In this document: positions 5,719-38,728 of the stretch, in pieces
How positions within the stretch are numbered: the first letter of the stretch is position 1
Layout of the letters: every line of letters begins with the position of its first letter
Source of the DNA: a virus
Lineage: Duplodnaviria; Heunggongvirae; Uroviricota; Caudoviricetes
IMG/VR virus record: IMGVR_UViG_648231705_000004
Reading direction: 5' to 3' (one strand)
Length of the DNA stretch: 38,728 bases
Made by a program: the position numbers and the translations under genes
The notes under the pieces: model-generated
What the model saw: the letters and a program-made list of their open reading frames with translations, nothing else
Database searches by the model: none
What the model was told of the DNA's origin: nothing

Positions 5719-7488
5719 TCAGTTGCCGTTAACAATGCTGATAACACTGCTGCGGGCCGGTGTGGTCAGCGTGGCCATGACTTCATCCAGTGCGGCTTCC
5801 GGTACGCCGTCCGGGTACTGTGCCGTTAACTGGCGGTAATGTTCCGGCGTCCAGGTAAGGCCGTCGGCGCTGAACTTATCGCGCAGGGCTTTCGCGGCCT
5901 CCACATGAGTCATGGGACGTTGTTCAGTGCGCGGCCCGCGTACGTCAGAGGCCTGACCACGCTTCGGCATATAGGCCGGAAGTGTGGTGTCGTCGATATG
6001 TTTATACGGGTCAAGCCGCCCGCCGAACGGCAGCGCCTTCGCCTTGCGTGCGGCAGCTGCATCTGCGGCGTTGTCTGTACCGGTGACCAGCGCTTCGGTT
6101 TCTTTTGCCGCCATCTGCGCCGGGGTTTCCGGCAGGGCTTTGTAACTTTCGCCAAATACCGCCGCGCCTTCAGCAAAGCCAAACTCGTTCTTTCTGACCT
6201 CTTCGACCAGGAAGAACGTCTCGTGGCCGTCCTCACCGGTCAGAACCACCTGTGCCACATCGCTGCGCCACGGGTTACGGGTAATCATCAGTTTTTCACC
6301 AACCAGTACGCCCGGTACCGTTGATACGTCAAATTCAGTGCCCCGGAACGAGACACGAAGTTTTGGCGTGACTTTGCGGAGTTCTGGTGCCGCCACAGCC
6401 AGTTCACGGCATACCTCAACGGAAGGCGCTTTTTTCAGCTGCTCAGCAGTAATCTTCAGCCAGATATCCGTGCGGGTTTTACCGTGGCGGCTGTGAACAG
6501 CCGTGGCGTTAAAGTGGCTGCGCCATTTCGCGGCCAGCGCGTTGAGTTCTTCCAGACTGTGAACCGGCCGGAACTTCAGACCCGGCTCCAGCTTGCGTTC
6601 GATAATGTCACGCGCCTTTTCCACCTGTCCGGTGGCGCGGGCGTTATGCGGCTTGTGCGCTATCAGGTCAATGCCCAGTGAGTGGCACATGTTTTTCGTC
6701 ATACCCGCGGTGTTTGCCGAGCCGGGGTCGAGATAGAGTATTTTTGGCACGCCGTGCAGCACGTCTGCGCCGCCACGCTCCTGCATGGCGTTGATAAGCA
6801 CAGAACACAGGTTCTCACCGGATTCCGCACCCGTCACATACTCAACGTAAATCCAGCCGCTGGCATGGTCGGTAATCTCGTAACTCCACACGCGGTCACT
6901 GGCGATACGGGCAAGGTTAGCGGGTTTGTTCTTGTAGAACTTCGCGCTGTCCATCACCTGCAGCCCTTTGTGTCCATTGCTCAGGTAGTAAAGCGTGCAG
7001 AGAGAGGCATCAATCTGCCAGACATGATTGGGATGCAGACTGGCCACTTCGGTATGCGGCGCAGGGGCATCCAGTTGTTCCGGGTGCAGGCCATAGTTAC
7101 GCAGGGCTCGGCTGATGGCATCTTCGGACAACGGGAAAAACTCACCGGTGGTTTCATCTGTTCTGCCTGCGGTGATAAAGCCGTTAGCCCGCAGGGTTTC
7201 CACTGCATCTGCGATGGAATAGAGACGCTTACCGTTCTTGCGGGTGGCCTCACGCAGTGTGGCAGATATCAGCGCGGCTTCGTCGCGGGTCAGGGCGCTG
7301 CGCCCGGCATCGGCGCGTTTTTTGCGTTTATCAGTCACAGAGACCTCCTTCAGCCTGCGCAGCAGAGTGGCGCGGGACATGCCAAGTTCAGCACAGGCAG
7401 CGTCGTATATTGCACCGCGTTTACCATGCCCCGCGTCACGTGCCGCGCGGGCGACATAAACCAGTCGTTCAGTCAGGGCAGCATTCAT
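5719..7488 (-). CDS. DDE transposase (Mu A-like / rve integrase-core family)
   Basis: 589 aa; N-terminal HTH, central catalytic core with conserved acidic residues (HVWQIDAS..., ...LYLDPGSANT...); GGAGG RBS; followed by the ATPase gene. Confidence 0.92.
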   Translation of the reverse strand: MNAALTERLVYVARAARDAGHGKRGAIYDAACAELGMSRATLLRRLKEVSVTDKRKKRADAGRSALTRDEAALISATLREATRKNGKRLYSIADAVETLRANGFITAGRTDETTGEFFPLSEDAISRALRNYGLHPEQLDAPAPHTEVASLHPNHVWQIDASLCTLYYLSNGHKGLQVMDSAKFYKNKPANLARIASDRVWSYEITDHASGWIYVEYVTGAESGENLCSVLINAMQERGGADVLHGVPKILYLDPGSANTAGMTKNMCHSLGIDLIAHKPHNARATGQVEKARDIIERKLEPGLKFRPVHSLEELNALAAKWRSHFNATAVHSRHGKTRTDIWLKITAEQLKKAPSVEVCRELAVAAPELRKVTPKLRVSFRGTEFDVSTVPGVLVGEKLMITRNPWRSDVAQVVLTGEDGHETFFLVEEVRKNEFGFAEGAAVFGESYKALPETPAQMAAKETEALVTGTDNAADAAAARKAKALPFGGRLDPYKHIDDTTLPAYMPKRGQASDVRGPRTEQRPMTHVEAAKALRDKFSADGLTWTPEHYRQLTAQYPDGVPEAALDEVMATLTTPARSSVISIVNGN

Positions 7489-7491
7489 TGG

Positions 7492-8403
7492 TTATGCCTC
7501 CAGCCCGTTAATCTGTGGCGTCGGCTCAGTCAGCCATGAAGGCGCTGCATTGCCTGTTGGCTCGTCCGGCAGGTCAAATGTGGAGCGCAGGCTACGCGCT
7601 GTGCTTTCCAGTTGACAGACCAGGCCTGCCATGAAGTCTCTGGGGGTATCAATCATGTTTTCAGCACAATATGCGCACAGCGTCTCAAAAGCGCTGGACA
7701 GTCGAACGGCGATGGCAGATTCCGCCTCAACCGCTAACGCGGTCACTTCTGCCCGCAGTTTCTTCACCTCTTCATCAGGCTCAGGTGGCTGAATACGGGA
7801 TTTCTTCTCCAGTCTGGTGGAGAGTGAGTCTATTTTTTCATTTTTGTCGGCGAGTACGCGCTGTTGTGCTGCGTTGGTTTCGCGCGCTTCGCGCAGGGCC
7901 TGACGCAATTCACGTACTGACATGCGATCAACATCGTCAAGCGTCAGTCCGGCAACTGTGCCACCGTCGGCCAGTTCAGCAAGGTCGTCGTCATCTTCAG
8001 CAACAAGTTCAAATAATTTTGCCTTACCTAAAAGCGACAACGTTGTCGCTTTTGGCTCTAGTTTTGGTGAAAGGTATTTCAAAGATGCTTTCATCATTCG
8101 TTGTGCTGCGCGCACATGCAGACCAAGTTGTTCTTCTACAATTCCAACAAAGTCCCCGTGAGGTTCATTTTCTTTGAGAATAATAAGTCGTTTACCTGCT
8201 TCCAGCATGGCCTCAGCGCTCTGTGCCATATAAAACCGAGCCTCATGAACTATGCGATCACGCTCATAGGGCTGACCATCGCCAAACTGCTGCATGATCT
8301 CCATACGATGCTGTGTCATGGCGTTCAGACTGACATTGAGATCATCCGACAGCGGTACCTCGGCGTTCAGTTCAGTGTTAATCGGTGATTTGGTGCGTCC
8401 CAT
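7492..8403 (-). CDS. conserved Mu-like early protein (303 aa, HTH-like N-terminal region, acidic coiled-coil C-terminus)
   Basis: Strong AGGAG RBS; stop is 4 nt upstream of the transposase start; not present at this position in canonical Mu. Confidence 0.7.
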   Translation of the reverse strand: MGRTKSPINTELNAEVPLSDDLNVSLNAMTQHRMEIMQQFGDGQPYERDRIVHEARFYMAQSAEAMLEAGKRLIILKENEPHGDFVGIVEEQLGLHVRAAQRMMKASLKYLSPKLEPKATTLSLLGKAKLFELVAEDDDDLAELADGGTVAGLTLDDVDRMSVRELRQALREARETNAAQQRVLADKNEKIDSLSTRLEKKSRIQPPEPDEEVKKLRAEVTALAVEAESAIAVRLSSAFETLCAYCAENMIDTPRDFMAGLVCQLESTARSLRSTFDLPDEPTGNAAPSWLTEPTPQINGLEA

Positions 8404-8413
8404 TTATTACTCC

Positions 8414-8728
8414 TTACAAACGACTACCTGAAATGACACGTTGGTTGATTTCGTTAATGCGATCCTGTGCACGTGCCATCTCGTTACTGTGGGCCATAGC
8501 GATCTGCAGTAACTGGATGCCCGGCGCGAAACGCCCGTTTTCCAGTTTCAGGGCCAACCCTTCTTCAATGAGGGTGTTGAGTGCCCGGTTGATGTTTGCC
8601 GGTGACTCGTGCAGTGCTGCCGCCAGTTCACCGTTGGAAATACCGTTCAGGGCATGACCGCGCAGCGCTTTGAGTACCCGGAGGATGCGACTGCCGGAGC
8701 TTGAAACATTCGTCTTACTCATCTGCAT
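8414..8728 (-). CDS. putative winged-helix DNA-binding regulator (104 aa; start may be ATG 8722)
   Basis: HTH-like segment ...ISNGELAAALHESPANINRALNTLIEEGLA...; second ATG has better SD spacing. Confidence 0.6.
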   Translation of the reverse strand: MQMSKTNVSSSGSRILRVLKALRGHALNGISNGELAAALHESPANINRALNTLIEEGLALKLENGRFAPGIQLLQIAMAHSNEMARAQDRINEINQRVISGSRL

Positions 8729-8774
8729 ACCTCTTTTGCGATATGTGATAACCTTTTACAAAGACTCAAAATCT

Positions 8775-8963
8775 TCAGGCTGCCTGAGCTGTTGATTTCA
8801 GCCCCAACTTCACGGCGATTTCATGGGATTTACCGTAACGGGCTTTGGTCTGCCCATTGAGAACGCGGTATACCTCATTGCGGTTGTAGCCGTTTTCTTC
8901 TGCCCAGCGGGTGAAAGTGATCCCGCGCTGGCGGAAGAGAGCTTTGACTTGTTCTGCAGTCAT
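8775..8963 (-). CDS. small HTH DNA-binding protein in the Ner position (Ner/Cro-like)
   Basis: 62 aa; AGGAG RBS; first gene of the minus-strand early operon, divergent from the repressor gene. Confidence 0.6.
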   Translation of the reverse strand: MTAEQVKALFRQRGITFTRWAEENGYNRNEVYRVLNGQTKARYGKSHEIAVKLGLKSTAQAA

Positions 8964-9063
8964 CGTTGTCTCCTTTGTTGATGCAATGATGTTTGCCTTA
9001 TGTGTGATAGATTATGGTGCAGATTACCTCACCAGTCAACTTAAAGAGTGCAGAAAAACTCAC
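8964..9063. promoter_or_regulatory. divergent early/repressor promoter-operator region
   Basis: 100-bp AT-rich spacer between the divergent Ner-like and repressor genes, with repeated GATTAT/GATTAC and TGATG motifs; equivalent position to Mu operators and transposition enhancer. Confidence 0.45.
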
Positions 9064-9402
9064 ATGATCGGGTTACGTATTAAAGAAGAAAGAGAGCGTC
9101 TATCTCTTACACAGCAAGGGTTGGCTGATGCTATAGGTGTGGCAAAGAGAACTTTCATTGATTGGGAAAAAGATCGCACTTCTCCTACTGCAGTGCAGTT
9201 ATCTGCACTATCAGAAATCGGTGTAGATATTTTGTATGTAGTTACTGGGGTGCGGAGTCAGCCTGTTGTTGCACCTTATGTGTCACAAGAAAAGAAAGAG
9301 TTAATGGATGCATTCGACGAAATGAGCCCCGAACAACGGAGGGCAATTCTTGAGGTCGGCAAAGTCTTCATTCAACCCAAACCAAGCAAACTCGCAGGCT
9401 GA
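9064..9402 (+). CDS. HTH XRE-family (CI/C-type) repressor, putative lysogeny repressor
   Basis: ORF 8911..9402; likely start ATG 9064 (MIGLRIKEERERLSLTQQGLADAIGVAKRTFIDWEKDR... classic XRE helix-turn-helix); divergent from early operon. Confidence 0.75.
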   Translation: MIGLRIKEERERLSLTQQGLADAIGVAKRTFIDWEKDRTSPTAVQLSALSEIGVDILYVVTGVRSQPVVAPYVSQEKKELMDAFDEMSPEQRRAILEVGKVFIQPKPSKLAG

Positions 9403-10388: not shown

Positions 10389-10426
10389 CCAGCCCGGATT
10401 TCGGGTTCCGGGCTGGTCGTTCTTTC
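10389..10426 (+). terminator. orphan terminator-like hairpin (possible end of a small plus-strand transcript)
   Basis: Perfect 10-bp stem CCAGCCCGGA / TCCGGGCTGG, 8-nt loop, followed by TCGTTCTTTC; no plus-strand ORF upstream. Confidence 0.35.
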
Positions 10427-25257: not shown

Positions 25258-25593
25258 ATGTCACAGACCCCATCCGATACTTTTAAATTGTCTTATCCCT
25301 TCACCACTGCTGCAGGCACCAGAATTGAGCTGGTTGAACTGAAACGCCTGACGGTAAAAGACCTGAAGCAGGTGCGCAAAATCAGCAAAAACCCGGCAGA
25401 CTGGGACGAACCGCTGATTGCCCGCAGTACTGGTCTTCTCCCGGAAGATCTCGACAATATGGATCTGGCTGATTACCTGCAGTTACAGAAACGATTTCAG
25501 CTCATCACGGGGATGGGTGAGAGCAACCAGGGCGCTGACGCAGGCGCAGGGGCTGCTGGCGAGATGGTTCCGGTTTCAGCCGGGGGAGATTGA
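25258..25593 (+). CDS. tail assembly chaperone (upstream frame of a probable frameshifted pair)
   Basis: 111 aa; AGGAG RBS; sits between tube and tape-measure genes; Gly/Ala-rich C-terminus ending in a G5 run before the stop. Confidence 0.65.
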   Translation: MSQTPSDTFKLSYPFTTAAGTRIELVELKRLTVKDLKQVRKISKNPADWDEPLIARSTGLLPEDLDNMDLADYLQLQKRFQLITGMGESNQGADAGAGAAGEMVPVSAGGD

Positions 25594-25675
25594 TGCCCTC
25601 GATACTGACGATCTGGAGATGTGGCTGGAGCAGGCTGAAGAGCAAATCAAAAGCGAGTACGGCGACAAATCATAG
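25418..25675 (+). CDS. +1-frame extension of tail assembly chaperone (probable frameshift product C-terminus)
   Basis: Frame-2 ORF overlapping end of 25258..25593; only its last ~30 codons (EIDALDTDDLEMWLEQAEEQIKSEYGDKS) look protein-like. Confidence 0.4.
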   Translation: MPAVLVFSRKISTIWIWLITCSYRNDFSSSRGWVRATRALTQAQGLLARWFRFQPGEIDALDTDDLEMWLEQAEEQIKSEYGDKS

Positions 25676-25750
25676 TACAGACAGCCGCCAGTAGCGGCTG
25701 TTCTGCGTTATCCCCTCACGTCTTTTCACCTTCCCCGGAGGTTAACCACT

Positions 25751-26158
25751 ATGTCGGGACAGTTTTCAGTCGGCGTTGTTATCGGCGGGATGATTGGCAG
25801 CACATTCCGTTCTGCAATGAGCGGTACCCGCCGTGCGCTTGATTCCCTGAGCGATACCTCACGCCGCCTGCAGGAACGTCAGAACGCTTTAACCCGTGCA
25901 ACAGAACGTTATGGTCAACTGGGTTCTTCCCGGATGCAGCATCTCAACAGCGAGCTGCTGCGGGTAAGCCGCACCATGGAGCAAATTGAGCGCCAGCAGC
26001 GCCGTCTGTCAGCGGCATCCGCTACCAGTGATGCGCTGAGAAAGCTAACCGCATGGCGCTGTATGGTCAGGGGATTGAAGCGTATGGCATGGCACAGACT
26101 GTTTATCATACGGTTTCCCCTGCCGTTCAGCAGTCCATGTCTTTTCAGGACAAAATGA
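25751..26158 (+). CDS. tail tape measure protein, N-terminal segment (frame differs from the main ORF)
   Basis: Strong RBS GGAGG before ATG 25751; typical TMP N-terminus; frame switches to that of 26053..28965 between ~26032 and 26060. Confidence 0.5.
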   Translation: MSGQFSVGVVIGGMIGSTFRSAMSGTRRALDSLSDTSRRLQERQNALTRATERYGQLGSSRMQHLNSELLRVSRTMEQIERQQRRLSAASATSDALRKLTAWRCMVRGLKRMAWHRLFIIRFPLPFSSPCLFRTK

Positions 26159-28965
26159 TTGATATGTCGATCACCGCAAAATATGACAATAAAACGCGGG
26201 ATGCACTTGCCGGACAGATAAAAGGCTGGGCGCTTAAATACAATCAGTATCAGGATGAGCTGCAGGAGGCGGTGGGTTCACTCATCAGCGACAATATTGA
26301 TAATGTGTCAGATATCGGTTTTCTGATGCCGGATATTGCCCGCGCGGCAACGGCAACACGCACGTCTGCTCAGGACTGGGCAAAAGTGGCCGCAGTCTGG
26401 CAAAACTCCCTGAAAGGTGCGGCCAGAGATTTTGGTGCCGTTCAGAATATTATGGCTTATGCCGGTGACCAGGGGTCATTTGAAATCCCGGATCAGGTCA
26501 AGTGGATGCAGTCCCTGGCCCCAATGATGGCGGGTCTTGCCAGTGGAAAAGAGGCTGTTGCTGAAATCGGGGCCAGTCTCCAGATAGCAAAAATCGGTGC
26601 AGGTTCCACCGACGAAGCAGCCAATAATTTTAAAAACTTTCTTACCAAAATTTTTGCCCGCGATACTCAGAAACAGTTTGCTGATCTGGGTATTGATTTG
26701 CAGGGATCTATTGCGAGTTATAAAGCTGCGGGGATCTCTCCGATTGAAGGGATGTTGAGTGTTATAGAACGTTACCTCAATGCCAAAAGCCCCGAAGCGC
26801 TGGCCGGCTTCAAATCAGCCATGAAAATAAAGAATGATACGGCAAGAGATGAGGCACTTCAGGCTCTGGCGAAAAACTTTGGTCTGGGCGATATGTTCGC
26901 GGATATGCAGGTCATGGCATTTATCCGCCCGATGCTGGCCAACATGGACAGATATCGAGAGATCCGTGCCGGTGCTCTCAGGGCTGCGGATAACGATTTG
27001 CTTGCCAGTGCTTATGATCAGCGGCTGAAATCTCCCCTTGAAGCCACTAAAACACTTATGGTCAGCAGTCGCGATCTGGCAATTACGCTGGGCGATCAAT
27101 TAGCTCCATCTTTTATTTCTCTGACTCAGGAACTGCTCCCACTCATTCAGGGGACAAAACACTGGGTAGCGACTCACCCGCAATTTGTCAGTGGGGCTTT
27201 TAAGCTCATCAGTGCGCTCCTTGCGATTAAGATAGCGACTATTGGTCTCAAACTGGGGCTGAATCTCCTTATTTCCCCCTTTGTGAACGTCTGGAAAACT
27301 ACTGTTTTACTCCGGACCAACTGGCATCGACTGACTACCGCACTCGGAGAAGGTGGCAAATTACGCTGGCTTGTCACTGGATTCAGCCGACTGACCAGCG
27401 GAGGACTGAAACTCAGCAAAGTTCTGGCGGGCAGCCTCGTTCGCGGTTTTATGAGCGCTGCACGTGCCGTTCTCTGGATTGGGCGAGCGCTGATGATGAA
27501 TCCCATCGGTCTCGTTATCACCGCTGTCGCGACAGCAGCTTACCTTATCTACCGCAACTGGGGGGCTGTCAGTGGTTGGTTTAAACAGCGCTGGGCTGAC
27601 ATTCAGGAAGCCTTTAACGGCGGCATTGTGGGAATTGGTAAGTTGCTGATTAACTGGTCGCCGGCAGGCCTGCTCTATAAAGCCTTTGCGGCTGCGCTGA
27701 AATATTTCGGCGTTGCTCTGCCGGCAAAGTTCACCGACTTCGGTGGCCATCTTATCGACGGTCTGATTAACGGTATCAAAAGCAAATGGGGGTCGCTCAA
27801 ATCCAGTGTAACCGGAATGGGTGACAGCATCAGTAGCTGGTTTAAACAGCGCTGGGCTGACATTCAGGAAGCCTTTAACGGCGGCATTGTGGGAATTGGT
27901 AAGTTGCTGATTAACTGGTCGCCGGCAGGCCTGCTCTATAAAGCCTTTGCGGCTGCGCTGAAATATTTCGGCGTTGCTCTGCCGGCAAAGTTCACCGACT
28001 TCGGTGGCCATCTTATCGACGGTCTGATTAACGGTATCAAAAACAAATGGGGGTCGCTCAAATCCAGTGTAACCGGAATGGGTGACAGCATCAGTAGCTG
28101 GTTTAAACAGTGCTGGGCTGACATTCAGGAAGCCTTTAACGGCGGTATCGCGGGAACTGGTAAGCTGCTGATTAACTGGTCGCCGGCAGGTCTGCTCTAT
28201 AAAGCCTTTGCAGCTGCGCTGAAATATCTTGGTGTTGATCTGCCGGCAAAGTTCACCGACTTCGGTGGCCATCTTGTCGACGGTCTGATTAACGGTATCA
28301 AAAACAAATGGGAGTCGCTCAAATCCAGTGTAACCGGAATGGGCGACAGCATCAGTGGCTGGTTCAGCGAAAAGCTGGGCATTCATTCGCCGAGCCGCGT
28401 GTTTATGGGCTTTGGTGACAATATCGCGCAGGGGGCCGCCATTGGCCTGCAGCGGACCACTCCGCTTGCAGCTCTGGCCGGGCAGCGAATGGCCAGTGAA
28501 CTGCTCCCCAGAATGCCCGTGAGCATTCAGGGGCCAGAAATACGGGATAACACTTCAGGTGTTCGCTTCAGTATGCCGTTGCCCGATATCAATGGGTTTA
28601 TGTCGTCTGCTAAAAATGCGATCGGAGCCGTAATCAATAGTTTGTCTTCCATGCCCGCTATCCCGCTCTCCACCCGGGCATCGATTTTACCAGGGCAACG
28701 TCTGGCAAATGAGATGACACCGGATGTTCCCCGTATCCCCTCGCCTGAAATCATGGCTGCCGGATATTCAGGCCGTGGTGCAGCTGCAACCGGCGGTGGA
28801 ACGTCTGGTGGTATCCAGGTCAGCTTTAATCCTCAGTTTTTCCTCAATGGCAGGGAAACCACAGCGCCTGCAGGACTGACTGGTGCCCTGAATATGAGTC
28901 TGCATGAGCTGGAAAAAATGCTGGAGCGTCTGCTGGCTCAGAAACAACGTAAGGAGTACCGCTGA
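26053..28965 (+). CDS. tail tape measure protein (main body, 970 aa)
   Basis: Long helix-rich ORF between chaperone and baseplate genes; contains three tandem 87-aa repeats. Confidence 0.85.
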   Translation: MALYGQGIEAYGMAQTVYHTVSPAVQQSMSFQDKMIDMSITAKYDNKTRDALAGQIKGWALKYNQYQDELQEAVGSLISDNIDNVSDIGFLMPDIARAATATRTSAQDWAKVAAVWQNSLKGAARDFGAVQNIMAYAGDQGSFEIPDQVKWMQSLAPMMAGLASGKEAVAEIGASLQIAKIGAGSTDEAANNFKNFLTKIFARDTQKQFADLGIDLQGSIASYKAAGISPIEGMLSVIERYLNAKSPEALAGFKSAMKIKNDTARDEALQALAKNFGLGDMFADMQVMAFIRPMLANMDRYREIRAGALRAADNDLLASAYDQRLKSPLEATKTLMVSSRDLAITLGDQLAPSFISLTQELLPLIQGTKHWVATHPQFVSGAFKLISALLAIKIATIGLKLGLNLLISPFVNVWKTTVLLRTNWHRLTTALGEGGKLRWLVTGFSRLTSGGLKLSKVLAGSLVRGFMSAARAVLWIGRALMMNPIGLVITAVATAAYLIYRNWGAVSGWFKQRWADIQEAFNGGIVGIGKLLINWSPAGLLYKAFAAALKYFGVALPAKFTDFGGHLIDGLINGIKSKWGSLKSSVTGMGDSISSWFKQRWADIQEAFNGGIVGIGKLLINWSPAGLLYKAFAAALKYFGVALPAKFTDFGGHLIDGLINGIKNKWGSLKSSVTGMGDSISSWFKQCWADIQEAFNGGIAGTGKLLINWSPAGLLYKAFAAALKYLGVDLPAKFTDFGGHLVDGLINGIKNKWESLKSSVTGMGDSISGWFSEKLGIHSPSRVFMGFGDNIAQGAAIGLQRTTPLAALAGQRMASELLPRMPVSIQGPEIRDNTSGVRFSMPLPDINGFMSSAKNAIGAVINSLSSMPAIPLSTRASILPGQRLANEMTPDVPRIPSPEIMAAGYSGRGAAATGGGTSGGIQVSFNPQFFLNGRETTAPAGLTGALNMSLHELEKMLERLLAQKQRKEYR
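27577..28359. repeat. 3 x 261-bp near-identical in-frame tandem repeats inside tape measure gene
   Basis: Unit begins TGGTTTAAACAGCGCTGGGCTGACATTCAGGAAGCC at 27577, 27838 and 28099; encodes SWFKQRWADIQEAFNGGIVGIGKLLINWSPAGLLYKAFAAALKYFGVALPAKFTDFGGHLIDGLINGIK... Confidence 0.9.
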
Positions 28966-30061: not shown

Positions 30062-31203
30062 ACAGTACTGCGCAAGCCACATCAGCGTTAACCGGCGTCA
30101 GCGATGTGCTGACGCCGGTATTCACTCTGTGGTATCTGCAGAAAAACATCACCTCTGATATCGCGCCTTATGTCACCCGTGTGACCTGGAGCGATAACAT
30201 CAAAAATGAGTCCGATACCATTGAGGTGGAGCTGGACGACACCGATGGCCGCTGGCTGGATAAGTGGTATCCGGGCAAGGGTGACACGCTGACGCTGAAA
30301 ATGGGTTATCAGGGCGAGAAACTGCTGTCCTGCGGTACATTCTCAATAGACGAGATCGAAGTGAGTTCGCCCGCGTCCGTTGTCGCTATCCGTGGGGTGG
30401 CCACCTCGGTTAACAGTGCTCTGCGGACTAAATCCAGCCGTGGTTTTGAGAACACCACGCTGGCAGCTGTTGCGGGGCGGATTGCCAGAAAGCACCGGCT
30501 GAAACTGGTGGGCAGCATTGAGTCCATCAGAATCGACCGGGTGACCCAGTATGCTGAAACCGACGTGGGTTTTCTGCGCCGGCTGGCCAGCGAGTATGGT
30601 TATGCAGTGAAAGTGGTCAGTGACCAGCTGATTTTTTCTCATCTGGCCACACTGCGCAGTCAGGAGCCGGTCAGGCAGTTAAAACCGCAGGATGTGGCCC
30701 GCTTTTCCCTGCGTGACACCATCAACCGGGTCTATAAATCTGCAAAGGTAAAACACCAGAAAAGCAGCAGTAAAAAACTGATCGTCTACGAAGCTGATGG
30801 TGGTACCCGTGAAAGCGACAAAAAGCTCAAAGGTGGTAAGGTTACCAGCGCTGACTCACTTAAAGTTAACAGCCGCGTCAGCGACCCGGACAGTGCCCGG
30901 ATTAAAGCGGATTCAGCACTGGCCAGACATAACGAATACCAGCAGAACGGCTCCCTGACGCTGACGGGAACACCTCAACTGACAGCAGGCAACAAAATTG
31001 AACTGGTGGGTTTTGGGCAGTTATCCGGGCCATGGCTCATAACCACTGCCCGCCATGCGTTTGACCGTAACAGCGGCTACACCACAGAGCTGGAAGTGGC
31101 ACGGGGGCCAGTCACAAGAGGGAAAAAACAAAAAACTCAGAAACTCACGGTTTATCACCCGGATGGCAGTACATCGACGGTGATTAAGGAGAAGAAAAAA
31201 TGA
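30049..31203 (+). CDS. tail/baseplate protein, P2 gpD / Mu P-like
   Basis: 384 aa; motif IEVELDDTDG and ...FLRRLASEYGY... as in gpD-family proteins. Confidence 0.85.
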   Translation: MAEINSTAQATSALTGVSDVLTPVFTLWYLQKNITSDIAPYVTRVTWSDNIKNESDTIEVELDDTDGRWLDKWYPGKGDTLTLKMGYQGEKLLSCGTFSIDEIEVSSPASVVAIRGVATSVNSALRTKSSRGFENTTLAAVAGRIARKHRLKLVGSIESIRIDRVTQYAETDVGFLRRLASEYGYAVKVVSDQLIFSHLATLRSQEPVRQLKPQDVARFSLRDTINRVYKSAKVKHQKSSSKKLIVYEADGGTRESDKKLKGGKVTSADSLKVNSRVSDPDSARIKADSALARHNEYQQNGSLTLTGTPQLTAGNKIELVGFGQLSGPWLITTARHAFDRNSGYTTELEVARGPVTRGKKQKTQKLTVYHPDGSTSTVIKEKKK

Positions 31204-33865: not shown

Positions 33866-35701
33866 ATGGGAAACCTGAATGAAACAGAAAAGTGGGAAGA
33901 AAATATCTATCAACTGGAGACATCAGATCCGGTTCTGGGTGGTGCAGACGGGATATCAAATCGAGCCCCCCGGCAACTGGCAAACAGGACGAAATGGCTG
34001 AAGAAAAAAACGGAGGAAGCCGCACAGTCACTGGCTGAACACGTACGTTCCCGTAACCACCCGGACGCGACACTGACAGCTAAGGGGTTCACCCAACTGA
34101 GCAGTGCCACCAACAGCACCTCTGAAACGCTGGCCGCCACACCAAAAGCCGTCAAGGCTGCATACGACCTTGCAGCCGGCAAGGCGCCCGTCAGCCACAC
34201 TCACCCGTGGAGTCAGATAACGGGAGTGCCTGCTGCCTCGCTGACGGCAAAAGGCACCGTACAACTGAGCAGTGCCATCAACAGCACGTCTGAAATACTG
34301 GCCGCCACACCGAAGGCGGTCAAGGCTGCATACGACCTTGCAGCCGGCAAGGCGCCCGTCAGCCACACTCACCCGTGGAGTCAGATAACGGGAGTGCCTG
34401 CTGCCTCGCTGACGGCAAAAGGCACCGTACAACTGAGCAGCGCCATCAACAGCACGTCTGAAACGCTGGCCGCCACACCGAAAGCGGTCAAGGCTGCATA
34501 CGACCTGGCAGCCGGCAAGGCGCCTGCCAGCCACACTCACCCGTGGAGTCAGATAACGGGAGTGCCTGCGGCTTCACTGACGGCAAAAGGCACCGTACAA
34601 CTGAGCAGCGCCACGGACAGTCAATCAGAAACTGAGGCTGCCACGCCGAAGGCGGTCAAGGCTGCATACGACCTTGCAGCCGGCAAGGCGCCCGTCAGCC
34701 ACACTCACCCGTGGAGTCAGATAACGGGAGTGCCTGCTGCCTCGCTGACGGCAAAAGGCACCGTACAACTGAGCAGTGCCATCAACAGCACGTCTGAAAT
34801 ACTGGCCGCCACACCGAAAGCGGTCAAGGCTGCATACGATCTGGCAGCCGGCAAGGCGCCCGTCAGCCACACTCACCCGTGGAGTCAGATAACGGGAGTG
34901 CCTGCTGCCTCGCTGACGGCAAAAGGCACCGTACAACTGAGCAGTGCCATCAACAGCACGTCTGAAATACTGGCCGCCACACCGAAAGCGGTCAAGGCTG
35001 CATACGATCTGGCAAACGGAAAACAACCGGCAGATGCCACGCTCACTGCTCTGGCAGGACTTGCCACTGCAGCAGATCGGTTGCCTTATTTTACCGGAGC
35101 AGACCGCGCAGCGCTGGCAACCCTTACAGCTATTGGTCGCGCTATTATCGCTAAGGGCAGTATAAAAGATGTCCTCAATTACCTTGGTTTGGGGGAAGGC
35201 TCTGCATTGCCTGTTGGTGTACCGGTTCCGTGGCCCACCGCCACACCGCCAGAAGGCTGGTTAAAGTGCGACGGGCGCGCCTTTACAAAAGAACAATATC
35301 CTGTTCTGGCCAGAGCCTACCCGACCCTCCGTCTTCCCGATTTACGCGGTGAGTTTATCCGTGGATGGGACGACGGGCGCAAAGTTGATACAGGACGTAA
35401 GTTGCTGTCCGCACAAGGGGCAACGCTGTTAAGAACAGCAATGCTGGATTATTATAACCAGGACACTACGGGAACCTCGGGGATAGTCGGCATGGGATTC
35501 AACAATGAAGATTCCATTACAGACCTTCGTGAGGGCAGCTTTAAAATGCCGGACGGGACAACATTCAGCGATCCTGTCATAGCAATGTCAGACAATGGTA
35601 TGCAGGCTACTATTCTGACCTCTATCAGAAGCGGGTATGCGAAGGGTATCACTGTCAGACCCCGTAGCATTGCACTTAATTACATTGTGAGGGCAGTTTA
35701 A
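33866..35701 (+). CDS. tail fibre protein (constant part + currently attached variable C-terminus)
   Basis: ORF 33860..35701 (ATG 33866, GGGAG RBS); six tandem 56-aa repeats with ...SSAINSTSE..AATPKAVKAAYDLA... fibre-repeat signature; the inverted-repeat crossover lies inside the gene at ~35185. Confidence 0.85.
   Translation: MGNLNETEKWEENIYQLETSDPVLGGADGISNRAPRQLANRTKWLKKKTEEAAQSLAEHVRSRNHPDATLTAKGFTQLSSATNSTSETLAATPKAVKAAYDLAAGKAPVSHTHPWSQITGVPAASLTAKGTVQLSSAINSTSEILAATPKAVKAAYDLAAGKAPVSHTHPWSQITGVPAASLTAKGTVQLSSAINSTSETLAATPKAVKAAYDLAAGKAPASHTHPWSQITGVPAASLTAKGTVQLSSATDSQSETEAATPKAVKAAYDLAAGKAPVSHTHPWSQITGVPAASLTAKGTVQLSSAINSTSEILAATPKAVKAAYDLAAGKAPVSHTHPWSQITGVPAASLTAKGTVQLSSAINSTSEILAATPKAVKAAYDLANGKQPADATLTALAGLATAADRLPYFTGADRAALATLTAIGRAIIAKGSIKDVLNYLGLGEGSALPVGVPVPWPTATPPEGWLKCDGRAFTKEQYPVLARAYPTLRLPDLRGEFIRGWDDGRKVDTGRKLLSAQGATLLRTAMLDYYNQDTTGTSGIVGMGFNNEDSITDLREGSFKMPDGTTFSDPVIAMSDNGMQATILTSIRSGYAKGITVRPRSIALNYIVRAV
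34073..35040. repeat. 6 x 168-bp in-frame tandem repeats in tail-fibre gene
   Basis: CTGACGGCAAAAGGCACCGTACAACTGAGC recurs at 34241, 34409, 34577, 34745 and 34913, with a degenerate first copy at 34073. Confidence 0.85.
35172..35197. promoter_or_regulatory. candidate left recombination (gix/pix-like) crossover site
   Basis: TCCTCAATTACC TT GGTTTGGGGGAA: 12-2-12 layout; inner half-site resembles the Gin/Hin-family half-site TTATCCAAAACC (as reverse complement). Confidence 0.45.
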
Positions 35702-36315
35702 TGAGTAACACTGCAGTTCTGGATGAAAACGGTATCGCCACTGTAGCGGGCGATATCACTGTATATCACTATGACGAGGAAACCCGGGAATACACCTCAT
35801 CCTCTGTGGAGTATCTCGCCCTTGGGGTGGGTACTCCGGCACATTCGTGCGCCGATGCACCGCCGGAGGCAATTTCGGGTTACGTGGTTTGCCGGACTGC
35901 CACGCTGAACGGGTGGGAGCATGTGCCTGATCACCGCGGCGAGACGGTATACAGCACGGAGAACGGTAACCCCGTTCTGATTACCCAACCGGGTGATTAC
36001 CCGGCGGACACCACCACAAAACAGCCAGCCACGCCATGGGATACCTGGAACGGTGAGGCGTGGGTAACCGATACTGAACGGCAGCGAACCGCAGAACTGG
36101 AGGTTGCCAGACAGCAACGCCAGCAACGGGTGAAACAGGCGATGGCGTCCGTCGATCTTATCAACCTCAAACTGCGTGCTGGTCGCAGTCTGACACCAGA
36201 AGAAACGGCAAAACTGAACGCCGTGCTGGATTATATCGACGAGCTGAACGCACTGGATATCAGCACGGCACCTGAAATCAGCTGGCCGGAAGCACCACTG
36301 GCACTTGCCAGTTGA
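35701..36315 (+). CDS. tail fibre assembly protein (chaperone)
   Basis: 204 aa; ATG overlaps fibre stop (TAATG); inside invertible segment. Confidence 0.8.
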   Translation: MSNTAVLDENGIATVAGDITVYHYDEETREYTSSSVEYLALGVGTPAHSCADAPPEAISGYVVCRTATLNGWEHVPDHRGETVYSTENGNPVLITQPGDYPADTTTKQPATPWDTWNGEAWVTDTERQRTAELEVARQQRQQRVKQAMASVDLINLKLRAGRSLTPEETAKLNAVLDYIDELNALDISTAPEISWPEAPLALAS

Positions 36316-36321
36316 ACGGTA

Positions 36322-36783
36322 TCACGCCGCCCTCACGATATAGTTAAATGCGATATTGCGGGGGCGAGCTGATACATAAGCCCACCAGTCATATCTTTGT
36401 GCACCTTTAGAGGATGCATCAAATATCCACTTTTTGCCATTTATGACCCCCAGTTGATTAGAGGTTAAAGCGTCACCAAATCCGTATTGTGTAGAGCCGA
36501 GCGAACTGATATCTCCGGTATTATTATCATCAAAACCGGATACGATAGTCCCTTCCTGAAATGAAAGTACCGTACGCCCGGTATCAACCTTGCGACCACC
36601 GTCCCATCCACGGATAAACTCACCGCGCAAATCGGGAAGACGGAGGGTCGGGTAGACTCTGGCCAGAACAGGATATTGTTCTTTGGTGAACGTAGCTCCG
36701 TTGCACTGTAACCAGCCTGCTGGCGGTGTGGCGGTGGGCCATGGAACCGGTACACCAACAGGCAATGCAGAGCCTTCCCCCAA
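36322..36783 (-). CDS. alternative tail-fibre C-terminal variable segment (promoterless; expressed only after inversion)
   Basis: N-terminal ~60 aa nearly identical to residues ~449-510 of the plus-strand fibre (GEGSALPVGVPVPWPTATPP...LRLPDLRGEFIRGWD); both variants end in NYIVRA. Confidence 0.65.
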   Translation of the reverse strand: MGEGSALPVGVPVPWPTATPPAGWLQCNGATFTKEQYPVLARVYPTLRLPDLRGEFIRGWDGGRKVDTGRTVLSFQEGTIVSGFDDNNTGDISSLGSTQYGFGDALTSNQLGVINGKKWIFDASSKGAQRYDWWAYVSARPRNIAFNYIVRAA

Positions 36784-36788
36784 ACCAA
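36573..36788. repeat. right inverted repeat of invertible segment (pairs with 35185..35400)
   Basis: Reverse complement aligns with 35185..35400 at roughly 88% identity by eye. Confidence 0.75.
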
Positions 36789-36800
36789 CGTTTATCTCTC
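36775..36800. promoter_or_regulatory. candidate right recombination (gix/pix-like) crossover site
   Basis: TTCCCCCAAACC AA CGTTTATCTCTC: inner half identical to the left site in inverted orientation; coordinates +/- 2 bp. Confidence 0.45.
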
Positions 36801-36854: not shown

Positions 36855-37427
36855 ATGCTGATTGGCTACATACGTGTGTCAACAAATGACCAAAACACAG
36901 ATTTGCAACGCAATGCATTAATGTGCGCAGGATGTGAACAGATTTTTGAGGACAAAATGAGCGGAACCAAGTCGGAACGACCAGGCCTGAAACGCGCTTT
37001 AAAGTGCCTTAAAAGAGGGGATACATTGGTGGTCTGGAAGCTGGATCGGTTGGGTAGAAGAATGAAACACCTCATTGCTCTCACAGAAGAGCTACGCGCA
37101 AAAGGTGTCAATTTTCGCAGTCTGACGGATTCAATCGATACCAGCACTCCGATGGGAAGGTTCTTTTTTCATATGATGGGTGCACTGGCAGAAATGGAGC
37201 GTGAACTGATAGTTGAGCGCACGCTGGCAGGACTGGCTGCTGCGCGAGCACAAGGGAGAGTTGGAGGACGTCGCCCGAAACTGACGAAGGAGCAGCATGA
37301 GCAGATCGCAAGATTGCTCCAGAAAGGGTATGACAGAAAGCGGCTGGCAATTATCTATGATATTGGACTGTCAACGATCTACCGCTACCACCCTGTTGGG
37401 ACTGTCATAACGCAACCTGAAATGTAA
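36855..37427 (+). CDS. serine-recombinase DNA invertase (Gin/Pin/Hin/Cin family)
   Basis: N-terminus MLIGYIRVSTNDQNTDLQRNAL with catalytic Ser; C-terminal HTH; ATG is codon 44 of ORF 36726..37427. Confidence 0.9.
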   Translation: MLIGYIRVSTNDQNTDLQRNALMCAGCEQIFEDKMSGTKSERPGLKRALKCLKRGDTLVVWKLDRLGRRMKHLIALTEELRAKGVNFRSLTDSIDTSTPMGRFFFHMMGALAEMERELIVERTLAGLAAARAQGRVGGRRPKLTKEQHEQIARLLQKGYDRKRLAIIYDIGLSTIYRYHPVGTVITQPEM

Positions 37428-37454: not shown

Positions 37455-37508
37455 TGGATGCCATTTATCGCACAAGATAGAGTGCATTTATCGCGCGGCG
37501 CATCAACA
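37455..37508. repeat. candidate transposase-binding terminal repeats at prophage right end
   Basis: Two direct copies of CATTTATCGC (about 37462 and 37486) just before the phage/host junction. Confidence 0.35.
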
Positions 37509-37549
37509 AATTTACCGCCGAACGCGCAGGCAAACAGTCGCTGGATGAT

Positions 37550-38728
37550 TTGATGAACAGTTCGCTGTATCTGATGCGCAGCGAATTGCGTGAGATCCCC
37601 CCACACGACTGGGGTAAGACGCTGAAAGAGATGGATTTAAATCTCTCTTTCGATCTGCGTGTCGAGCCACTGAGTAAATACCATCTTGATGATATTTCCA
37701 TGCACCGGCTGCGTGGCGGCGAAATTGTCGCTCTGGACGATCAGTACACTTTTTTGCAACGTATCCCGCGCAGCCACTACGTGCTGGCAGTTGGTCCTGT
37801 TCCTTATCTTTATTACCTCCATCAGATGCGATTGCTGGATATCGCCCTGATCGCTTTTATTGCCATTTCCCTCGCCTTTCCGGTGTTTATCTGGATGCGT
37901 CCGCACTGGCAGGATATGTTAAAACTGGAAGCAGCGGCGCAACGATTTGGCGATGGGCATCTCAGTGAGCGTATCCACTTTGATGAAGGTTCGAGCTTTG
38001 AACGACTTGGCGTCGCATTTAACCAGATGGCGGACAATATCAACGCCTTGATTGCCAGCAAAAAACAGCTTATTGACGGTATCGCTCACGAACTGCGAAC
38101 ACCGTTAGTGCGCCTGCGTTATCGACTGGAGATGAGCGATAACCTGAGCGCCGCCGAATCCCAGGCGTTGAATCGCGATATCAGTCAACTTGAAGCTTTA
38201 ATCGAAGAGCTGCTGACTTATGCCCGACTCGACCGCCCACAAAATGAGCTTCATCTTAGCGAACCAGACCTGCCGTTGTGGCTGTCAACGCATCTGGCAG
38301 ATATTCAGGCAGTAACGCCCGATAAAACGGTACGGATAAAAACGCTCGCGCAAGGCCATTATGCGGCGTTGGATATGCGCTTAATGGAGCGCGTGCTGGA
38401 TAATTTGCTCAATAACGCCCTGCGCTACTGTCACTCAACGGTTGAAACCAGCCTGCTACTGTCGGGGAATAGAGCGACATTAATTGTTGAGGATGATGGC
38501 CCAGGGATTGCCCCAGAAAACCGCGAACATATCTTTGAACCTTTTGTTCGCCTCGATCCCAGCCGGGATCGCTCAACCGGCGGCTGCGGGCTGGGGCTGG
38601 CAATTGTCCACTCTATAGCACTGGCAATGGGCGGTACGGTTAATTGTGACACCAGCGAACTGGGTGGTGCCCGCTTCTCGTTCAGCTGGCCGTTATGGCA
38701 TAACATCCCGCAATTTACCTCTGCCTGA
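37550..38728 (+). CDS. rstB: sensor histidine kinase RstB, 5'-truncated fragment (gene interrupted by the prophage)
   Basis: From memory, matches E. coli RstB from about residue 30 onward (KFTAERAGKQSLDDLMNSSLYLMRSELREIPPHDWGK...); HisKA box HELRTPL and ATP-binding G-box GGCGLGLAIV present; no RstB N-terminus upstream. Host-derived sequence starts at ~37508. Confidence 0.9.
   Translation: MMNSSLYLMRSELREIPPHDWGKTLKEMDLNLSFDLRVEPLSKYHLDDISMHRLRGGEIVALDDQYTFLQRIPRSHYVLAVGPVPYLYYLHQMRLLDIALIAFIAISLAFPVFIWMRPHWQDMLKLEAAAQRFGDGHLSERIHFDEGSSFERLGVAFNQMADNINALIASKKQLIDGIAHELRTPLVRLRYRLEMSDNLSAAESQALNRDISQLEALIEELLTYARLDRPQNELHLSEPDLPLWLSTHLADIQAVTPDKTVRIKTLAQGHYAALDMRLMERVLDNLLNNALRYCHSTVETSLLLSGNRATLIVEDDGPGIAPENREHIFEPFVRLDPSRDRSTGGCGLGLAIVHSIALAMGGTVNCDTSELGGARFSFSWPLWHNIPQFTSA

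Follow-up and report, generated by a model that had tools for sequence, protein, structure and literature searches.

Disruption of the tape-measure gene in the Mu-like Prophage 4 of Escherichia coli 83972 by a GA duplication that probably impairs tail assembly

The tape-measure protein (TMP) gene of Prophage 4 in the asymptomatic-bacteriuria strain E. coli 83972 is broken near its 5' end by two additional nucleotides, GA. From the comparisons presented below, we put a probability of roughly 0.85 on the reading that this is an authentic insertion, fixed in 83972, which splits the TMP gene and with which the ability to form normal infectious tailed particles has most likely been lost. The window, i.e. 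the whole 38,728-nucleotide stretch of DNA analyzed here (IMG/VR record IMGVR_UViG_648231705_000004), is Prophage 4 itself, a Mu-like transposable myovirus prophage residing in rstB, and is identical to NZ_CP058220.1 (strain 83972) except for a flipped invertible segment. A prophage was regarded as Mu-like if encoding a DDE transposase, a MuB-like ATPase, Gam and Mor, and if found at differing chromosomal insertion sites. The annotation lists integrase-catalytic/DDE transposase, ExeA-family, Gam and Mor proteins. In 83972 the element occupies rstB; other hosts carry it at or adjacent to gudD, yqhA, irp1, mdfA, yeiB and ybaP. The rstB junction was unique among 5426 genomes.

Intact relatives of the prophage are found in E. 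coli 2016C-3878 (CP029747, encoding the TMP WP_001529030.1) and in Escherichia phage PhiKM (PQ738613, genus Bcepmuvirus). The window shares 99.6–99.8% DNA identity with these relatives as well as the gene order of the tail region (sheath, tube, Phage_TAC_7 chaperone pair, TMP, P2 GpU-like, X, D), but unlike both CP029747 and PhiKM it has an extra GA after codon 96 and consequently carries two ORFs of 135 and 970 aa (Table 1).

Table 1 Features of the tape-measure region, given as positions in the window
Feature	Position	Strand	Description
Tail assembly chaperone pair	25258..25675	+	ORF 25258..25593 is Phage_TAC_7; ORF 25418..25675 overlaps in the +1 frame
Shine-Dalgarno sequence of the TMP gene	25737..25741	+	GGAGG, 9 nt 5' of ATG 25751
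Whole TMP gene of the Mu-like prophage	25751..28965	+	3215 nt, compared to 3213 nt (1070 codons) in intact relatives
ORF1	25751..26158	+	135 aa, codon phase 2; hypothetical protein WP_001304344.1 in RefSeq
Lesion	26038..26041	+	GAGA, compared to GA in relatives (2-nt tandem duplication); from alignment and the indel list versus CP029747
A_AAG tetramer	26041..26044	+	In ORF1 phase, created by the mutant sequence; candidate slip site from codon phasing
ORF2	26053..28965	+	970 aa, phase 1; corresponds to TMP residues 101–1070; annotated as tape measure protein WP_014639620.1 / ADN46394.1
ATGA overlap	26155..26158	+	Stop TGA (26156–58) and in-frame TMP ATG 26155; candidate reinitiation site
Tandem repeats in the TMP body	27569..28364	+	Three 261-bp (87-aa) repeats; Tandem Repeats Finder and self-hits

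One tape-measure gene in two reading frames

An initial sequence-only reading had described a strong ribosome binding site and start codon at 25751, followed by a 970-aa body that runs to 28965 in another frame, and interpreted the two as a single gene split by a frame change. Both observations hold: the two ORFs lie in different phases, and the duplex with the anti-Shine-Dalgarno (anti-SD) sequence at ATG 25751 has a predicted energy of −10.2 kcal/mol. ORF reading and alignment showed residues 1–96 of ORF1 (25751–26038) to be the native TMP N-terminus, while residues 97–135 are out-of-frame up to the TGA stop codon at 26156–58. The first in-frame ATG of ORF2 (26053) has a poor Shine-Dalgarno sequence, and separate initiation at this codon as an efficient start was not supported, the anti-SD duplex amounting to just −2.7 kcal/mol. 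The nearest upstream stop codon in the ORF2 frame is the TGA at 26029–31, and together with the stop codon of ORF1 this means that the frames could be joined anywhere within 26032..26155. The junction had previously been confined to 26032–26060, which is narrower than ORF logic permits, but the lesion did turn out to fall inside the sequence singled out there, CTGAGAAAGCTAACC.

Removal of the GA gives a 1070-aa ORF in which 2 of the 1070 residues differ from WP_001529030.1. The repaired protein matched PF10145 (PhageMin_Tail) over residues 159–340 (E = 1.3e-20; 74.6 bits, cut-off 33.2) and phrog_28 over residues 1–648 (E = 2.4e-135), and ORF1 by itself matched phrog_19282 (residues 2–95) and phrog_28 (residues 1–90). 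A chance pairing of the two ORFs was ruled out, as the GA-deleted product matches TMP profiles from residue 1. By alignment and profile, ORF1 and ORF2 can thus be identified as two pieces of a single 1070-codon TMP gene, as had been proposed. The gene is furthermore found where a TMP gene would be expected, directly 3' of the frameshifted chaperone pair and 5' of the baseplate/hub genes. The one continuous long ORF typical of TMPs is however missing in the window, where the gene is broken at codon 96, and the locus can be classified as a disrupted copy of a TMP family member.

The GA duplication and its distribution

When intact homologues, including those of CP029747 and PhiKM, were aligned to the window, a single +2 (GA) difference was found after codon 96, with CTGAGAAAGC in the window and CTGAAAGC in the relatives (TGA to TGAGA). 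The comparison with intact homologues, which had been suggested as a check, thus pins the lesion to 26038–26041, and it replaces the 1-nt indel initially assumed with a tandem duplication of two nucleotides. Relative to CP029747 and PhiKM, the two extra bases are assigned to 26040–41; within GAGA, the new GA copy is indistinguishable from the old one. Relative to CP029747, no indel other than the GA occurs in window positions 10404–31115, and comparison of the same interval to an intact relative revealed no other lesion in the late region, which is intact apart from the TMP gene. Being the only frame-breaking indel in about 20 kb of late genes, the lesion looks recent. A phase-variable repeat was also considered and rejected, since two GA units are too few and length variation at this position is absent from the other genomes.

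The allele was searched for in complete E. coli genomes containing the surrounding 80-bp stretch; of these 589 genomes, one has the GA insertion and 588 lack it. The uninserted allele was also the one found in 54/54 viral or metagenome contigs (22 from IMG/VR and 32 from metagenomes). CP029747 encodes the TMP as one 3213-nt CDS, and the other relatives among the matches listed likewise have a single TMP annotation.

An indel of two nucleotides is a minor change, and one seen in a single strain only, which could point to a sequencing or assembly error hiding a true genome with a continuous 1070-codon gene; the sequence-only reading had kept this option open. However, the exact 135-aa product of ORF1 and the underlying GA recur across 10 or more independent records and read-set assemblies of the 83972 lineage. 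Carriers include CP058220, the draft scaffold GG669095 (GCA_000159295.1) and the third-party assembly DADQYJ01, as well as Logan assemblies of SRR011111 and of at least six ERR1265xxxx runs (presumably 83972 derivatives), i.e. at least seven independent Logan read sets. Two complete 83972 genomes with the GA differ in length (5,131,397 and 5,131,295 bp), the longer of which is presumably CP001671, the entry that contains ADN46394.1. Noisy Logan assemblies with unrelated homopolymer errors elsewhere still carry the GA, and GAGA is not a homopolymer context. Reads restoring a continuous ORF, the outcome that would have spoken for an error, were not found among the independent 83972 data sets, and we regard this explanation as extremely unlikely. 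All of the independent 83972 data sets that were found have the GA, and it is therefore not a sequencing error. The insertion is judged to be fixed in the 83972 lineage. The TMP gene shows two sequence features expected of a frameshift pseudogene in a decaying prophage: the indel is not a multiple of three compared to intact orthologues (+2), and the lesion is reproduced in independent sequence data. On these sequence comparisons, the GA is assessed as an authentic, lineage-private mutation, and the class of event as ordinary prophage decay.

Programmed recoding and leaky expression

Phage tail modules use programmed frameshifts, and the chaperone genes contain one at a distance of 170 nt on the 5' side, which raises the question of whether the TMP split is itself a designed frameshift giving two TMP-related products. 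The two-ORF layout is, however, not conserved (1/589 complete genomes, 0/54 viral or metagenome contigs). In agreement with the sequence-only reading, there is no classical slippery heptamer (X_XXY_YYZ) in 26032–26155, just an A_AAG tetramer. For a −1 frameshift site, a stimulatory structure would be required 5–9 nt downstream of the heptamer, but the fold of 26036–26125 was insignificant (z = −0.93) and the sole stable hairpin begins about 20 nt downstream. With neither conservation, heptamer nor significant structure, the earlier preference for a mutation over a programmed shift is upheld, and the probability of recoding is considered practically negligible.

Programmed frameshifting proper belongs, in this tail module, to the chaperone pair, the ORFs of which join at a G5 run at 25578–25582 (overlap site within 25575–25589). 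For phage Mu, a −2 frameshift in the tail assembly chaperone is described in the passage of PMC5009743 that cites Xu, Hendrix and Duda 2004. The window shares the tail module with such Mu/P2-type systems and has an overlapping-ORF frameshift of this kind just upstream of the TMP gene. In contrast, the TMP split is unconserved, lacks a slippery site and is lineage-private, and its likeness to the chaperone frameshift is merely superficial.

Another explanation is that the mutation is leaky, so that enough TMP would still be made for some tails, either by reinitiation at 26155 or by a −1 slip at A_AAG. At the ATGA overlap, the in-frame ATG 26155 is preceded by AGGA 4 nt upstream, and gene calls on the Logan contigs start the downstream gene at this codon. 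The anti-SD duplex at 26155 is however weak (−4.0 kcal/mol) with a short spacing, and residues 1–134 belong to the conserved TMP profile. If reinitiation did take place, it would possibly give a 936-aa product (residues 135–1070) and tails about 20 nm shorter. Such an N-terminally shortened TMP would not necessarily be dead, since in-frame deletions in lambda gene H reportedly led to shorter but functional tails in work by Katsura and Hendrix. Few TMP copies suffice per tail, and this small requirement, as well as the lack of further decay of the TMP gene, would favor a leaky phenotype.

The A_AAG tetramer offers a second possible route, as a −1 slip of tRNA-Lys would return exactly to the TMP frame and may yield a complete TMP that is longer by a single Arg. 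In E. coli, no other tetramer is as prone to shifting as A_AA.G (Sharma et al. 2014, PMC4066793), but tetramers without a stimulator shift at about 0.15% compared to a background of 0.11% (PMC4066793), and the downstream structure at the right spacing is insignificant (z = −0.93, with the hairpin starting about 20 nt away). Weighing both routes, we consider a leaky mutation unlikely. Still more doubtful, and to our minds improbable, is the idea of the GA as a "savior-type" indel, where slippage of ~0.1% (giving ALRKANR for ALKANR) and/or a shortened ruler would keep the prophage marginally transmissible or short-tailed. A precedent is the G-run of herpesvirus thymidine kinase, where a savior indel is accompanied by low-level compensatory frameshifting (Atkins et al. 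2016, PMC5009743). As in that case, an indel that nearly abolishes the product lies beside a sequence where rare slippage could restore the frame; unlike it, there is no sign of selection for or use of the leakage, and the predicted efficiency is about background.

Consequences for the prophage and for strain 83972

Under the preferred reading of an inactivating mutation, the GA duplication most likely arose by replication slippage. Ribosomes starting at ATG 25751 would then synthesize 96 native residues followed by 39 out-of-frame residues before stopping at 26156, and the remaining 970 codons, without a good initiation signal of their own, would lead to little or no full-length TMP. Functional TMP is expected to be lost or severely reduced. 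The TMP is needed to nucleate the polymerization of tail tube and sheath and to set their length, and a defect in tail assembly is therefore expected; most likely, the prophage cannot form normal infectious tailed particles.

Urine and mitomycin, the conditions of the published electron microscopy of 83972, would not be expected to induce Mu-like prophages, which are not SOS-inducible, and the missing myovirus particles in that work hence say little about Prophage 4. The passages on this microscopy in PMC5039429 describe only lambda-like particles in 83972 cultures, attributed to Prophage 3, which agrees weakly with a tail defect of Prophage 4. The literature on induction or particles of Prophage 4 yielded only its existence and the rstB insertion, and the TMP frameshift is not mentioned in the relevant passages of PMC2928814 and Ambite et al. 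2016 (PMC5039429).

Reductive evolution of 83972 is described by Zdziarski et al. 2010 (PMC2928814) in passages reporting a frame-shifted hemagglutinin-related gene and an internal stop codon in hlyA, as well as focD disrupted by a prophage and rstB disrupted by Prophage 4. The TMP lesion resembles the other small inactivating lesions of the strain but differs in striking a phage gene and not a host virulence gene.

Regarding annotation, WP_001304344.1 and WP_014639620.1 / ADN46394.1, separate entries in RefSeq and GenBank, should be merged as one frameshifted pseudogene, and the importance of the finding beyond annotation is little. Bladders are deliberately colonized with E. coli 83972 as a therapy, and if its Mu-like prophage cannot form infectious tailed particles, this would be a small safety-relevant detail for the therapeutic strain. 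The TMP lesion adds an example of mutational decay in 83972, and the unique rstB junction combined with the private GA allele provides a simple two-part lineage marker for the strain.

The interrupted tape-measure gene

ORF listing and three-frame translation showed the tail tape-measure protein (TMP) gene to be split, as the sequence-only reading held, between two ORFs of different phase: ORF1 (135 codons) and ORF2 (970 codons, from ATG 26053). With the closest ORF2-frame stop on the 5' side at 26029-31 (TGA) and the ORF1 stop at 26156-58 (TGA), ORF logic alone permits a frame junction anywhere in 26032-26155; the narrower ~26032-26060 proposed earlier is thus not imposed by the reading frames, although the lesion does lie inside it. 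Alignment with CP029747 (E. coli 2016C-3878) and Escherichia phage PhiKM revealed a tandem duplication of GA, with CTGAGAAAGC in the window and strain 83972 versus CTGAAAGC in CP029747 and PhiKM as the sole difference at the lesion. Comparison with intact homologues therefore placed an indel at the predicted spot, but of +2 nt rather than the 1 nt suggested. When GA was removed in silico, a 3213-nt ORF was obtained, the 1070-aa product of which differs from the CP029747 TMP (WP_001529030.1) at two residues and matches tape-measure profiles starting at residue 1. ATG 25751, which opens the TMP N-terminus, is preceded by the GGAGG motif, a strong RBS (anti-SD duplex energy -10.2 kcal/mol). ORF1 comprises native TMP residues 1-96 followed by out-of-frame residues 97-135, and ORF2 corresponds to residues 101-1070.

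The TMP gene also contains three tandem repeats (96% identity), across which the draft scaffold GG669095 (GCA_000159295.1) departs from the window, its TMP being called in two pieces; this divergence probably reflects mis-assembled repeats. Shorter fragments from other assemblies fall in the 90% cluster of the 970-aa protein.

Features of the prophage (window coordinates unless stated)
Feature	Position	Strand	Details
Early/immunity region	7480-9346		mosaic, about 85% identity to CP029747
Tail assembly chaperone ORF	25258..25593	+	111 aa, PF10109 Phage_TAC_7
ORF overlapping chaperone	25418..25675	+	+1 frame, phrog_8286
G5 run	25578-25582		GCC GGG GGA GAT TGA
Shine-Dalgarno GGAGG	25737-25741	+	9 nt 5' of ATG 25751
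ORF1	25751..26158	+	
GA duplication	26038-26041		
A_AAG tetramer	26041-44	+	formed by mutant sequence
ORF2	26053..28965	+	
ATGA overlap	26155	+	ORF1 stop over in-frame TMP ATG
261-bp (87-aa) repeats	27569-28364	+	three copies
gpD-like late control gene, indel cluster	31116-31188	+	net -18 nt, in frame, versus CP029747
168-bp repeats, tail-fibre gene	34094-35014	+	5.5 copies
Invertible segment (G-segment-like)	35181-36791		inverted repeats 35181-35409, 36563-36791
Gin-like recombinase gene	about 36855-37427	-	
rstB (sensor kinase gene), interrupted	about 37503-38728 and left end		
phrog_28	TMP residues 1-648		repaired TMP
phrog_19282	TMP residues 2-468		repaired TMP
PF10145	TMP residues 159-340		repaired TMP

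Host lineage and origin of the insertion

Megablast with window 25600-26500 as query matched 636 of 5,426 complete E. coli genomes, with 100% identity over 901 nt only in strain 83972 (NZ_CP058220.1); the other top-ranked matches listed reached 99.8% over 899 aligned nt. The whole window is identical to NZ_CP058220.1 save one flipped tail-fibre segment, and these opposite orientations between identical flanks imply that the Gin-like invertase has been active within the 83972 lineage. The 83972 annotation describes a Mu-like transposable prophage of roughly 37 kb, flanked by both rstB halves and encoding a DDE transposase, a MuB-like ExeA-family protein, Gam, Mor, lysis, head, sheath, tube, baseplate and tail-fibre proteins and a Gin-like recombinase. 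It is the 'Prophage 4' that Zdziarski et al. 2010 (PMC2928814) described in ABU 83972, as did Ambite et al. 2016 (PMC5039429). The rstB/prophage junction was found in 1/5426 complete genomes, that of 83972, and related prophages are located at or adjoining gudD, yqhA, irp1, mdfA, yeiB and ybaP. Such scattered loci, expected of a transposable phage, indicate active transposition-type integration in this family.

An 80-nt probe centred on the GA site matched 83972 alone at 100%, the other 588 complete genomes carrying the uninserted allele, as did 22/22 IMG/VR and 32/32 metagenome contigs searched with a gapped pattern accepting both alleles. The exact ORF1 product was recorded from at least 16 contigs, including two complete chromosomes (5,131,397 and 5,131,295 bp), GG669095, the third-party assembly DADQYJ01 and Logan assemblies of SRR011111 and several ERR1265xxxx runs, and GA was present in every DNA retrieved from these records. 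Noisy read sets with unrelated homopolymer deletions elsewhere still hold GA. Sequencing error, which the sequence-only reading had weighed alongside authentic mutation, is thereby ruled out, and the insertion is a genuine mutation fixed in the 83972 lineage. Infection by a virion depends on TMP, and no other lineage has the rstB insertion; lysogenisation therefore most likely came before the mutation. The ERR1265xxxx contigs (L007-L013) show scattered single-base deletions (window 25387, 25582, 26472, 27560), mostly at G positions including the G5 run, which look like platform errors; all keep GA.

Frameshifting in the tail module

Programmed recoding of TMP, judged less likely in the earlier reading, was ruled out: the split is not conserved, the ORF1/ORF2 overlap contains no X_XXY_YYZ heptamer, and structure in the 90 nt downstream was no stronger than in shuffled sequences (z = -0.93), with the only stable hairpin beginning about 20 nt away. 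The genuine programmed frameshift of the tail module is that of the chaperone pair upstream, joined at the G5 run, where frame relation and site fit a -2 (or +1) shift, matching the -2 frameshift of the phage Mu tail chaperone cited in PMC5009743. Logan contigs short of one G in this run encode a fused 138-aa product.

Two leak routes for TMP are conceivable. Reinitiation at the ATGA would yield a 936-aa truncated ruler, and a -1 slip at A_AAG would restore the TMP frame exactly; as unstimulated tetramers frameshift at about 0.15% versus 0.11% background (Sharma et al. 2014, PMC4066793), leakage through slippage would be at background level.

Expected consequences for the prophage

GA is the sole indel relative to CP029747 within window 10404-31115, and the annotation of 83972 marks none of the prophage genes as a pseudogene. 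On both counts the prophage looks competent apart from this lesion, which in turn looks recent. Outside the early/immunity region, which lacks one small ORF of CP029747, identity to CP029747 is 98.5-99%. The gpD-like gene (1155 nt versus 1173 nt in CP029747) is variable but intact, and the tail-fibre CDS (1785 nt in 83972 versus 1932 nt) may differ in repeat copy number.

Ribosomes entering at the strong 25751 site would stop at 26156, and ATG 26053 has almost no Shine-Dalgarno sequence (-2.7 kcal/mol); full-length TMP would thus be essentially absent. Because TMP is required to start tube and sheath assembly and sets tail length, tailless or aberrant particles are the most likely phenotype. 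Electron microscopy of 83972 cultures, as described by Ambite et al. 2016 (PMC5039429), found lambda-like particles only, which is consistent with such a tail defect but not decisive.

In practice, the two CDSs should be re-annotated as one frameshifted TMP pseudogene, and the GA duplication, with the unique rstB junction, offers a lineage marker. The TMP split is an ordinary case of gene decay in a prophage, and reductive evolution was already on record for this strain.
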